Source of the DNA: a virus
Lineage: Duplodnaviria > Heunggongvirae > Uroviricota > Caudoviricetes
Virus record (IMG/VR): IMGVR_UViG_2778261418_000019
Coordinates: 1-22,248 of that record
Reading direction: 5' to 3' (one strand)
Length of the DNA: 22,248 nucleotides
Shown: positions 11,600 to 14,500 of the stretch, in pieces
Layout: each line of letters starts with the position of its first letter
Numbering within the stretch: the stretch's first letter is position 1
Made by a program: the position numbers and the translations under genes
The notes under the pieces: generated by a model
The model's database searches: none
Told to the model about the DNA's origin: nothing
The model's input: the letters and a program-made list of their open reading frames with translations, nothing else

Positions 11600-14500
11600 A
11601 TGGCAAACCAGATTATTACGGGCGGTGGATTTAAACTATATTTTAATAACGACACCGCAAACCGTATCCCCGATAACGCAGGAAATGAACAAGTAAACGA
11701 ATTGGCAGCAATGCCTACATTTGGTGTAGATAGTCAAGTACAAACTATTGAAGTATATGACAGTGGATTTTCCGAAAAACTATTATCCGAAAAAACGGCG
11801 TCGAATATTCCAATTACCGTAAACTATGTAGCAGATTGTACGGCCCATAAATTTTTGGATGAAATGACAGAATCACAAGAAGAATTCCAACTTACTCTAC
11901 AGTACGATGTAACTGATGGTCTAATTTCTTATAGTATGGTTAATGGTGCTATATCTTCTTATTCTCTAAATGGTGATAAAGATTCGGTAGTTACCAAAAC
12001 ATATAACTTTGTGCCTACCGAAGTAATTGCAACTAACGCAATTGCCCCACTAAGCGAAAACTTAGTAGTAGGATCTTATGGTGTTGGTGCTAATGGTAAT
12101 GATGTGCCTCAGTACGAACCACTTACCCCCGAAGGTAATAGCTTTATTAAAGTACCTGCATCACAGCTAGGAAACCCAGCCAGTGCGGATATGATGGGTG
12201 TAGGTCTTATTGATGGTAATTCGTTTAGTTCCATTGCAATGACTAAATCCGGTACATTGGCAATCTATGCAAAGAACCAGAATACAGCATGGACGCGTAT
12301 ACTTACTGCAACCCAGATTAGTGATCAGTATGTACCACTTACCCGTACTATTAACGGTAGAGCACTAAGTACAAATATCTCAATTACTAAAGGTGATGTA
12401 GGACTAAGTAATGTAACCAATGATGCACAATTGAAAATTGCAAGTAACCTTAGTGATCTAGCAGATAACTCAATTGCCCGTACTAACTTAGGTTTAAGCC
12501 GTTTCCAACAATACGCTAACCCCGTTGGCGAAACTCGCGTAGTATCCGGCGATGGTAATATGCGTTTATTTGTTAAGAATGATGGCACCTGGGGGGTGTG
12601 GAACGGCACAGCCAACGCATCACAACCCCTACCAATTCTACAGGGTGGAACAGGGGCAAGTACAGCAGAACAGGCGAGAACAAACTTAGGTATTCTTTCT
12701 TCTTCCGAAGTTAGTAACCTATATGTACCAAAAACTACTACTATTAATGGTAAAGCACTTACAGGTAATATATCAATTACTAAAGGTGATGTAGGACTAA
12801 GTAATGTAACCAATGATGCACAATTGAAAATTGCAAGTAATCTAAGTGATGTTGCAGACGTTACTACTTCTAGAAATAATATTAAAGCACCTACGGTTGG
12901 CGGTGGTCAAATAATTGCAGTTCCAGCACCTCCGGGAGTGGAAGCAGACAAATACTATCCAGTAATTATCGATCTATCCTATGATAATATTTCTTCTACT
13001 GGTGCACATATCGATCTATATACTAAATCGTCTTCTGGTGGTGATCCGATGAACTCCGCACAGTTTAACGGTTTTGTTCGTGCTGGTGGATGGACAGATC
13101 GCGGTGATGCTGGATATGGTTACTATAACTGCTATGCACCAAGTGAAAAAGCACTTAACTGTATTCTTGTTAGTGCGAAGGTTGCAGAAGATAAGATGGC
13201 AGTATACGTAGAAGGCCGAGCGTTTCCAGTACGTATGAGGATTCCAGCATTCTGTACTGCATTTGCACCAACGGCAACATATACCGCAGGATCTGATGTA
13301 GTTTACCCGTGGGGCGTAGCTGATCCAATGAGTACCGCAGTTGCAAACGGAACGCGTGCATTATTCGATTTTAGACAAGCACGTCCTGGCTTTTATATGT
13401 CCAATAGTTCTACTACTACACCTAACTATTATATCGGTGGTGGTGGTCGTGCTGTACTATCAAATGGTATGAATATCGGAGAAAACCTAACAATTACGGC
13501 TCCTAAATTAACATTTAGTGGTAATATTGAAGCGGGTAATGGTTTTATTGCTTCCGGTACTGGTGTAAATGATTTTACCTTTGTATCAAAACAATTAAAT
13601 GCAGATTTATCTACTAAATCACAATCAGAATTTAGAACGAGCGACGGGGCAATTCAATTAGTATGGCGTGGCGTTACTTCAAGTGATACTACTCAATTCT
13701 TTAACTTTAATAGTGATGGTACATTTAGCTCACCAAATGGATTTTTATCTTCAACTGGTCAGGACTGGAACGGTCAAACATCCATTGTTAACCGTAGTAG
13801 ATTTTTAGCTGGTAGTGTAAACGGTCCAGACGGTACTAATGTCTATGGCGGTACTCATACTGGCTTTAGTGGTAATTATGGTTTTCAGATTGTAGGAAGA
13901 CAGAATAAAGCATTCTTCCGTACTATCGAAGCTGGTACTAATGGAACATGGAATCAGATACCAACTCTGAATCTAGCTAATACATGGGCCGGTACTCAAT
14001 CATTTACTGGTAATCTATCAATCACTGGTAAAGTAACATCACCAATTACAATTGAAGGTGGATCACCTGCATTTATTCTCAATCAAACGGGAACTGGTGC
14101 TACAAAATATTCACTAATTGGAACGGATGGAAATATTACCTTATCTAAAAATGATACATTTGATGTAATTAAATATACATCTAGTACCGATACACTTAGT
14201 ACAGCAGCAGCAAATACTACATTAAAAAATCTATCTGTTACGGGTAATCTATCCAGTACGGGTACATTAACAACTACGGGTAGTTTGAACGCCCAATCAT
14301 TGACTACAACAGGTATTGTAAATGCTGGATCAGTAACTACTACTGGTAGTGTAAATGCTGATACTATTGTAGCAACAGGAAGTATTGATTCTTCTTCATT
14401 GACTACAACTGGTAGTGTAACTTCTGGATCATTATCTACCGGTACTGTTACGGCAAGTGGTGATATTATTTCTTCTAGTAAGATTGTTACACAGGCTAAC

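Follow-up and report, generated by a model that had tools for sequence, protein, structure and literature searches.

Paralogous shaft units sharing an identical 68-nt core in a mosaic prophage tail-fibre gene: a probable case of recurrent short-tract gene conversion

The fibre genes of coliphages, such as P2 H, Mu S and lambda stf, are reportedly mosaic, with conserved motifs at the junctions between modules, as Haggard-Ljungquist and co-workers are said to have described in 1992 and Sandmeier in 1994. In bacterial chromosomes, duplicated sequences such as tufA/tufB and the rRNA operons undergo concerted evolution by gene conversion, and RecA-dependent recombination in E. coli is efficient above roughly 25-30 bp of identity. 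Tail tube proteins can carry C-terminal decorations, examples being the Ig-like domain of lambda gpV, SPP1 gp17.1* and lactococcal TpeX. Lateral fibres of the DT57C type are attached differently, via an N-terminal helix and strands held in a dodecameric LtfC collar (PMC10713586).

The gene described here lies in a window of 22,248 nt, the whole stretch of DNA that was analysed, taken from a Caudoviricetes record of IMG/VR; all features are on the plus strand unless stated otherwise. An open reading frame at 11600-15334 encodes a protein of 1244 aa, and the exact protein is deposited at NCBI as WP_097504037.1. An earlier sequence-only reading had called this a fibre gene, and the call is borne out by matches to the tail-fibre families PHROG 6578, 5481 and 1980 and by a C-terminal intramolecular chaperone of the Peptidase_S74 type (aa 1131-1185, 14990-15154), whose score of 27.4 bits exceeds the Pfam gathering cut-off of 22. 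Just upstream of the chaperone, the motif SDQSVK places Ser and Lys at positions i and i+5 and aligns with SDINFK in phages SeppeHuegi and CSP1 and with SDLRYK in HildyBeyeler. From what is known of endoNF and T5 pb1, we take this Ser and Lys to be the putative autocleavage residues.

Within the gene, the nucleotides at 12380-12447 and 12773-12840 are identical at 68 of 68 positions, and these limits are maximal for an exact match. The second copy starts 393 nt after the first, which equals 131 codons and keeps the frame of the fibre gene, and both encode the peptide TING(R/K)AL(ST/TG)NISITKGDVGLSNVTNDAQLKIASNLSD; on extent, frame and peptide the sequence-only reading was thus accurate. When up to three mismatches to the 68-mer were allowed, these two sites alone were found, and none appeared in 100 dinucleotide-preserving shuffles. 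The flanks had been described as similar, in what was taken to be a near-perfect duplication. Similarity does extend more widely, with 82% identity over 169 nt (12297-12465 versus 12690-12858), but 25 of 72 upstream and 7 of 21 downstream positions outside the core differ (∼34% together). Between the copies, a stretch of 224 nt (12466-12689) has no counterpart at all.

The repeat belongs to a protein module of ∼56 aa, here called the A unit (YVPxTxTINGKxL..DVGLSNVTNDAQLKIASNLSD..ARxNLG), which occurs 0-3 times per fibre in a large family of enterobacterial prophage fibres, with units 65-131 aa apart across the family. The 68-nt core corresponds to the most conserved residues of the unit, ITKGDVGLSNVTNDAQLKIASN. 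Among 50,697 phage records, only 30 have the motif, and every annotated match lies in a tail-fibre gene. Alignment across the family distinguishes two subtypes: a ‘proximal’ one, YVP[LI][TSN]R, seen in 44 of 44 units immediately behind the N-terminal domain, and an ‘internal’ one, ..KT., seen in 38 of the 45 non-proximal units. Copy 1 (aa 244-299, 12329-12496, YVPLTRTINGRAL...ARTNLGL) is of the proximal subtype, and copy 2 (aa 375-430, 12722-12889, YVPKTTTINGKAL...SRNNIKA) is of the internal subtype.

The 66 codons that intervene form a B unit (aa 300-365, 12497-12694, ...W.V....GGTGAS....ARTNLGI), a module unrelated to the A unit and without similarity to the copies, whose homologues occur as repeats in the related locus L002, as they do in lateral fibres from Seuratvirus and from T5-like phages. 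Beyond copy 2 lies a distal domain (aa 424-791, 12869-13972), identified by tblastn, BLASTP and PHROG 6578, that is common to lytic coliphage lateral tail fibres. The predicted architecture is A-B-A' upstream of the receptor-binding part of a modular, mosaic fibre. An AF2 monomer model of A-B-A' (aa 236-440) had a mean pLDDT of 57, with values below 60 in the A units and of 71-83 in the B unit. Foldseek comparison of this model with the PDB gave nothing at E<=0.001, and the whole fibre sequence matched nothing in the PDB at E<=1. The sequence-only reading had likened the repeat to the classical phage tail fibre repeat. This comparison was not upheld: Pfam PF03406 (Phage_fiber_2) has no match to the full-length protein at E<=1 or to either copy or A-B-A' at E<=10, and the repeat segments match no other Pfam model at E<=10 and nothing in NCBIfam at E<=1. 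Parts of the motif are also found in the Vibrio CHOED ‘tail fiber repeat family protein’ and in the Erwinia Cronus fibre, and neither has a Pfam fibre-repeat match.

Recent duplication had been suggested as the origin of the repeat. If 393 bp (131 codons) had lately been duplicated in tandem and the core had not yet diverged, the in-frame spacing and the 68 identical nucleotides would result, and the 169 nt would be recognisably alike. Such an event would not produce flanks as divergent as those observed, or a long counterpart-free stretch between the copies. Diverged flanks accompany the two copies in all 11 related assemblies, and the copies fall into different subtypes, each conserved across the family. 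We therefore regard a recent duplication as very improbable.

The related assemblies, together with the window, make up a two-copy clade of 12 in which the spacing is always 393 nt and the cores differ at 0-8 positions; the 11 other fibre proteins are 89-97% identical to that of the window. An identical gene, with 0 differences, is found in two of them (L075 and L076), one of which may be the window's own source, so that these gene sequences may not be independent. Four further assemblies, two of them metagenomes, have the next closest allele, with 1 nt of difference between its copies. These data bear on the possibility, also raised by the sequence-only reading, that the copies were collapsed or homogenised during assembly or polishing. 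The absence of any inter-copy difference in this lineage only is what such an error would leave. However, a typical short read exceeds the repeat in length, the flanks are unique, the same gene and its nearest allele recur in the two and four assemblies just described, and every relative examined has both copies. The related assemblies exclude an artefact, and we consider one next to impossible.

Instead, the two copies are probably old paralogous A units in a mosaic fibre of an E. coli prophage, with cores kept alike by recurrent short-tract gene conversion. This is the best explanation because derived bases are common to both copies within a genome, and because more distant relatives have only short identical runs: in ten further fibres with several copies, the maximal stretch of perfect identity between units ranges from 8 to 42 nt, including those with all 23 core residues in common. 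Within genomes, core differences over 68 nt number 0 in the window, 1 in L071, 2 in L003 and L006, 3 in L001 and L005, and 8 in L004, compared with 30-35 per 93 nt in the flanks of six lineages (window, L001 and L003-L006). Where the two copies encode the same amino acid, the ratio of identical to synonymous codons is 22:0 in the core and 11:7 in the flanks (Fisher p=0.0017). For example, L005 has a derived C at core sites 5, 14 and 17 in both copies (12385, 12394 and 12397 in the window, and the same positions +393), and L004 has a derived C at site 14, again in both.

By a hypergeometric calculation, at least three common derived positions would arise by chance with a probability of 0.0008, or 0.02 if third-codon positions only are counted. 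Pairing each copy 1 with the copy 2 of its own genome gave the minimum summed distance of all 5040 pairings (19 versus a mean of 25; fraction at or below the observed value 0.024). With seven distinct two-copy lineages, these statistics are modest, at p about 0.02. Two marks of concerted evolution are nevertheless present, namely derived alleles common to both copies of a genome and a sharply bounded identical tract, and the recombination between copies that had been proposed earlier finds support, as gene conversion, in the common derived bases and the pairing result. Homogenisation is uneven, as the 8 core differences of L004 indicate; copy 1 of that lineage looks swapped by allelic exchange, not converted. 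The final step to identity in the window, where site 38 of copy 1 went from T to C, may have been a single point mutation and not a conversion.

Under gene conversion, the cores of the proximal and internal shaft modules would have been homogenised repeatedly by short-tract, non-reciprocal homologous recombination between the copies, and in the lineage of the window the last remaining core difference would have been erased. Conversion tracts would be halted at the edges of the core by heterology, and probably also by selection on the copy-specific flanks. The source of A' could be an ancient internal duplication or a foreign cassette.

Exact nucleotide identity, where conservation of amino acids would suffice, could also be expected if the 68 nt were conserved as functional DNA or RNA, such as a site for a recombinase, a signal for frameshifting or a regulatory RNA. 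Between orthologues, divergence is about equal in the core (0-8 per 68 nt) and the flanks (0-17 per 93 nt), and cores gain synonymous changes at about the flank rate, so no special constraint at the nucleotide level is indicated. The RNA fold is not unusual (z-score -0.94), Rfam gave no match at E<=1, promoter- and terminator-like sites are at background level, and distant relatives use different codons for the same peptide. The exact 68-mer had no match in species-representative genomes. Megablast of the fibre gene and of the entire window against the 50,697 phage records matched only an IS2 end; the fibre gene does not have even a 28-nt word in common with these records, which also speaks against a conserved nucleic acid element. 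A function of this type is scarcely credible.

Direct repeats of this length raise the question of whether the fibre changes in length, as the sequence-only reading had proposed for the shaft. A programmed or high-frequency switch, in which RecA-mediated crossover between the cores removes or adds 131 aa and so alters the reach of the fibre, is compatible with 68 bp of identity, above the minimum of roughly 25-30 bp, with a product that stays in frame and with the variation of A-unit number from 0 to 3 over the wider family. The proposed changes in length were not seen in the clade. Of the roughly 80 members of protein clusters 1-5, the 31 full-length ones listed are all of 1232, 1233 or 1244 aa, and none is 131 aa shorter or longer (1102 or 1364 aa). 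The comparison of copy number among relatives, which had been suggested as a check, gave two copies 393 nt apart in 11 of 11 related assemblies. The length polymorphism that does occur in the clade (1244 versus 1233 aa) comes from a separate 33-nt (11-aa) tandem repeat at 14296-14439, identified by TRF, as repeat family D1, from the cluster lengths and by comparison of the window with L001. A length switch at the core is therefore highly unlikely; a reciprocal crossover between cores would take out or double 131 aa without a frameshift, and under the gene-conversion explanation such events would be rare or selected against.

Each copy of the repeat marks an apparent mosaic boundary of the fibre gene. 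DNA homology between the window and L002 stops at ∼12470, just past copy 1, and the gene is then without it until its final ∼90 nt. Homology to the fibres of lytic phages begins at aa 421-424, immediately past copy 2, with 52-55% identity to SeppeHuegi, CSP1 and HildyBeyeler. Because both copies sit exactly at such boundaries, the conserved A-unit DNA may double as a crossover point for swapping distal fibre cassettes between phages; the one observation pointing to this role is the coincidence of boundaries with copies. The positions of the copies could guide the choice of junctions in engineered chimeric fibres or tailocin-like particles.

These boundaries are also relevant to the origin of copy 2. 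It is possible, though on balance unlikely, that A' and the distal cassette came from another phage and were joined to an A-B fibre at the common ...ARTNLG module end, with the cores homogenised later, an account that differs from the preferred one only in the origin of the second copy. In distant relatives such as P0052 and P0053, internal junctions from one A unit to the next match copy 2 and the junction preceding it (ARTNLGILSSSEVSNLYVPKT), the part past copy 2 is common to lytic phages, and copy number (0-3) and spacing (65-131 aa) vary across the family. However, lytic phages with the distal domain carry a B unit, not an A unit, before it, so no donor of A' plus distal domain was found. 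The G + C content is 0.52 in the B unit and 0.31-0.35 in the A units, which would fit a composite origin; this gap may reflect amino-acid content alone, and it was rejected as too ambiguous a sign of foreign origin.

A more far-reaching proposal would make the A unit a dedicated recombination handle in an undescribed class of siphophage fibre that is anchored by its own tail-tube-fold domain. DNA kept uniform by conversion would let distal receptor-binding cassettes swap among temperate phages and, past copy 2, with lytic T5-like/Queuovirinae phages, and shaft modules would be gained and lost likewise. We consider this unlikely. If true, it would be a system for changing host range that is analogous to a shufflon but driven by homologous recombination.

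Known systems of programmed variation were also considered. A diversity-generating retroelement with variable and template repeats (VR/TR) was rejected: the copies are identical, not A-variable, and both are in the shaft, not at the C-terminus. No reverse transcriptase was found among the scanned fibre and tail ORFs or in the annotations of related prophages. An invertible segment of the Gin/Cin/Min or shufflon type was rejected as the repeats are direct, not inverted; the fibre gene has no invertase beside it, and the only recombinase seen in the relatives is an integrase-like serine recombinase at the prophage end. On the minus strand, an ORF of 162 aa with a TTG start (12325-12813) had been described as a by-product of the repeat. 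The ORF exists and is judged non-coding, but the frame is mainly responsible for it, not the repeat: third codon positions of the antisense frame coincide with those of the sense gene, and in such a frame stops can arise only from Tyr, His and Gln codons. The antisense frame is open in all relatives. In this region, the ratio of synonymous to non-synonymous substitutions relative to them is 17:0 when read as the sense gene and 14:3 when read as the antisense ORF, and on this basis the ORF was rejected as a real gene.

[quoted passage not shown] It is 32% identical (BLASTP, E 9e-21) to the neighbouring ORF at 15395-15853 and matches PHROG 158, ‘major tail protein’, at 1e-18. Foldseek related its AF2 model (pLDDT 72) to the tube proteins of lambda (gpV), YDC107, 80alpha and Sf11 (E∼1e-6, probability 1.0). 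The ORF at 15395-15853, directly downstream of the fibre gene, encodes a tail tube protein of 152 aa (PHROG 158, Pfam Phage_tail_3), and the order of fibre gene and then tube gene is kept in every relative examined. Judged by sequence comparison, the N-terminus of the fibre and the neighbouring tube protein are paralogues, which is more unusual than the repeat itself. From its fold, and from the location of the fibre gene, with head-tail genes on one side and the tube gene on the other, the domain may form a ring within the tail tube, and the paralogy suggests side fibres mounted directly on a tube ring. A literature search found neither the A-unit motif nor tube-domain fibres described, and this context, in a prophage family found across the Enterobacteriaceae, may merit separate study. 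The prophage copy in the window is probably defective, because IS2 interrupts its J-like gene and its tape-measure gene is frameshifted, and present function of the fibre is not to be assumed. The tape-measure gene of L002, from strain WGI31CT, is uninterrupted.

For a mosaic fibre gene the repeat is nothing out of the ordinary and is of little importance in itself, but it is a clean and well-bounded example of intragenic conversion; neither recent duplication nor assembly error need be assumed for long exact repeats in such genes. Like the fibre genes of P2 (H), Mu (S) and lambda (stf), that of the window has exchangeable segments, with short conserved coding stretches where homology between phages starts and stops; it differs in the sequence of the motif, in its occurrence twice per gene and in its gene-converted core. 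The A unit resembles PF03406 as a short repeated element of a fibre shaft, but matches no Pfam model. The lateral fibres of T5 (pb1), DT57C (LtfA), SeppeHuegi and HildyBeyeler have the distal domain (52-55% identity), B-type units (...GGTGA...A(R/K)TNL) and an S74 chaperone with Ser-x4-Lys in common with the window fibre, whereas these T5-like/Queuovirinae fibres are without the A unit, and where fibres of the LtfC-collar type are held in a collar the window fibre has its own tail-tube-fold N-terminus. Concerted evolution of the tufA/tufB type similarly gives likeness within a genome, common derived synonymous alleles and sharp tract limits; here the tract is at most about 70 nt and joins modules 393 nt apart in one gene. 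Decorated tube proteins such as gpV also have an N-terminal tube-fold domain followed by an outward extension, and the predicted model aligns to full-length gpV over about 250 columns; the fibre differs in its extension of ∼1,100 aa with its own chaperone, and in being a separate paralogous gene beside a plain 152-aa tube gene.

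Within the fibre gene of the window (11600-15334, plus strand, 1244 aa), which is the only long ORF at the repeat, 68 nt are identical between positions 12380-12447 and 12773-12840, and the identity extends by no further base on either side. With up to three mismatches allowed, these are the only two sites of this core, and none was found in 100 shuffles. The copies are offset by 393 nt, or 131 codons, in frame with the fibre ORF. Around the cores, a wider similarity links 12297-12465 to 12690-12858 (169 nt, 82%), with mismatches at 25 of the 72 upstream and 7 of the 21 downstream positions. 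A sequence-only reading had described an exact in-frame match with recognisably similar flanks, and in this it was accurate. The term ‘duplication’, in the sense of a whole 393-nt unit having been copied, does not apply, because the flanks differ and 12466-12689 has no counterpart.

The repeated element is part of a shaft module of ∼56 aa, here called the A unit (YVPxTxT(I/V)NGKxLSxNIxLxKxDVGL(G/S)NVTNDAQLKIASNLSDLxxxxxARxNLG), that recurs in a fibre family spanning Escherichia, Shigella, Enterobacter, Citrobacter, Klebsiella, Salmonella, and other genera. From a search space of 5.8 billion proteins, 120 family members were listed, with no A unit in 51, one in 50, two in 18, and three in 1, at spacings of 65, 76, 83, 98, 101, 112, or 131 aa. 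The A unit has no match in Pfam, NCBIfam, or PDB; it had been likened to the classical phage tail fibre repeat, but PF03406 does not match it. It is rare in sequenced phages (30 records, from Erwinia, Vibrio, Pectobacterium, and other phages), where the annotated matches all fall within tail-fibre genes. The two A units of the window are separated by a B unit (aa 300-365, with GGTGAS...ARTNLGI at its end), an unrelated type of module that is repeated within the related E. coli prophage L002 and is also present in lytic-phage fibres. The 131-codon period is thus the sum of an A unit, a B unit, and a short linker, in the local layout A-B-A'. The GC content of the B unit (window 12500-12680) is 0.52, compared with 0.31-0.35 in the A units, which could point to a different origin or only to a composition rich in Gly, Pro, Trp, and Ala.

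The two copies are old. All 44 A units located directly after the conserved N-terminal domain read YVP[LI][TSN]R, and 38 of the 45 at other positions read ..KT.; copy 1 of the window (core 12380-12447) is of the former subtype and copy 2 (core 12773-12840) of the latter. Since the copies belong to different family-wide subtypes, their lineages parted before the family diversified, and the ∼34% divergence of the flanks is consistent with such an early separation. Both observations contradict the suggestion of a recent duplication. Copy 2 may have arisen through a duplication within the gene long ago, or it may have been brought in with a foreign cassette.

The identity of the cores was compared with other two-copy alleles, ten of which were taken as DNA from isolate genome and metagenome assemblies in addition to that of L001, a second related E. 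coli prophage, giving 11 related assemblies, or 12 with the window. The 393-nt spacing is kept in all 12. Within genomes, the cores differ at none of 68 nt in the window, L075, and L076, at one in L071-L074, at two in L003 and L006, at three in L001 and L005, and at eight in L004; the flanks differ at 30-35 of 93 nt in all six lineages in which they were compared. Where the two copies encode the same amino acid, the core has 22 identical codons and no synonymous differences, compared with 11 and 7 in the flanks (p=0.0017). Furthermore, L005 carries the same derived base in both copies at the synonymous sites 12385, 12394, and 12397 (window numbering, partners at +393), and one of these sites is also derived alike in both copies of L004. 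The chance of such sharing is p=0.0008, or 0.02 on third positions alone, and without conversion it would require parallel mutations. In a pairing test, the actual pairing of copy 1 with copy 2 had the lowest summed distance of all 5040 pairings.

Between orthologues, the core diverges at about the rate of the flanks, the core RNA fold is unremarkable, and the core has no Rfam match and no promoter or terminator signals, which together argue that there is no special constraint on its nucleotides. Protein constraint by itself does not yield nucleotide identity either; in ten other multi-copy fibres of distant relatives, the longest exact runs are 8-42 nt, even with all 23 core residues identical. 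The best explanation for the identity of the cores is recurrent short-tract gene conversion between the copies, which would be confined to the stretch similar enough to pair. In the allele nearest to the window, copy 1 has T at site 38 (window 12418), and this last core difference was erased in the window lineage, either by one further conversion or by a point mutation. A distant relative (L007/L016) has two immediately adjacent A units, at fibre aa 339 and 404 with a spacing of 65 aa, whose 5' parts share an exact run of 42 nt but whose cores have 13 mismatches in 69 nt. The part of the A unit that undergoes conversion may therefore vary between lineages. The repeat is real and now explained, a feature that is ordinary for mosaic tail-fibre genes and notable chiefly as a tidy case of intragenic gene conversion.

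The instability expected of such a repeat is not visible. All 31 full-length clade proteins listed, from five 90%-identity clusters, are 1232, 1233, or 1244 aa long, and none of them is 131 aa shorter or longer. From what is known of recombination in E. coli, a crossover between the cores is mechanistically possible; it would change the length by 131 aa in frame, and is infrequent or else removed by selection. The shaft-length variation that does occur in the clade comes from a tandem array of 33-nt (11-aa, TTTGSVNAxS-like) units at 14296-14439, the site of the 11-aa length difference, in which the window has one unit more than most relatives (1244 versus 1233 aa). An antisense ORF (12325-12813, minus strand), open in all relatives, had been attributed to the repeat, which does add to its length, but its main cause is that it is read in the frame that shares its third codon positions with the fibre gene. 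In this frame, a stop requires a Tyr, His, or Gln codon with particular bases before it. Synonymous and non-synonymous substitutions relative to L001 number 17:0 in the sense and 14:3 in the antisense frame, and we regard the antisense ORF as non-coding.

In the fibre gene, the window and L002 are homologous at the DNA level from the start codon until shortly after copy 1 (about 12470), and then again only in the last ∼90 nt of the gene. Homology with lytic-phage fibres starts at aa 421-424, just past copy 2, and the distal region (aa 424-791) has 52-55% identity with the lateral tail fibres of the lytic phages SeppeHuegi, CSP1, and HildyBeyeler; lytic-phage fibres have a B unit, not an A unit, at the position of copy 2. 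Both copies therefore lie at meeting points of segments of different ancestry, and we infer that conserved A-unit DNA served as the crossover site.

The window comes from a rare E. coli prophage of siphovirus-like type that shares no DNA with sequenced phages apart from 41 nt of IS2 at the window end. Its relatives L001 (96.6% identical to window 1-14327) and L002 (91.7%) were found in two complete E. coli chromosomes, inserted inside yegD beside a large serine recombinase (L001 6265-7863; L002 3222-4820, outside the window), and the related element is ∼32 kb long. The gene order is terminase, portal, capsid, head-tail joining, fibre, tube protein, chaperones, tape measure, distal tail protein, and J-like tip protein. 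The J-like tail-tip gene, which starts at 20458, is interrupted by IS2: homology to L002 ends at 22207, and the remaining 41 nt (22208-22248) match, at 100% identity, phage records that carry an annotation for the IS2 transposase InsD. The tape-measure gene (16600-16992 and 17039-18808) is split by a frameshift near 16990, with reading continued in the +1 frame; the split is also annotated in L001, and L002 has a single 732-aa ORF. With both lesions, this prophage copy is probably defective. Elsewhere, adjacent paralogous ORFs at 2897-3289 and 3299-3685 have a near-identical signal-peptide-like start (MKK..SALLLVAPSVLA) and are possible prophage cargo genes for secreted proteins or lipoproteins. 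The 632-aa ‘major capsid protein’ ORF (8959-10857) resembles a fusion of a protease or scaffold with the capsid protein, in that its capsid domain is preceded by a long N-terminal part and a linker that is strongly acidic and rich in Glu and Val.

The fibre protein, which has the same sequence as WP_097504037.1, ends in a Peptidase_S74 intramolecular chaperone, preceded by an SDQSVK Ser/Lys motif. Unexpectedly, its N-terminal 143 aa (window 11600-12028) are paralogous (32% identity, E 9e-21) to the product of the next gene downstream, the 152-aa tail tube protein, a relationship that is more unusual than the repeat and lies outside the original finding. In its predicted fold, this domain matches tube proteins of siphophages, lambda gpV among them, and it is followed by a further beta-rich domain that reaches to about 12304. 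All 120 listed proteins open with a short motif, M..I[FY][TS]G..., at the start of the tube-like domain, and the domain itself was confirmed in a diverse subset of them. The fibre-then-tube gene order is kept in prophages of many enterobacterial genera (L001-L011, L015-L045). No description of a tube-paralogue fibre N-terminus was found in the literature searched. One possibility is that the fibre is incorporated into the tail through a tube-like ring bearing the fibres; the fibres of T5-like phages attach instead through a collar (PMC10713586).
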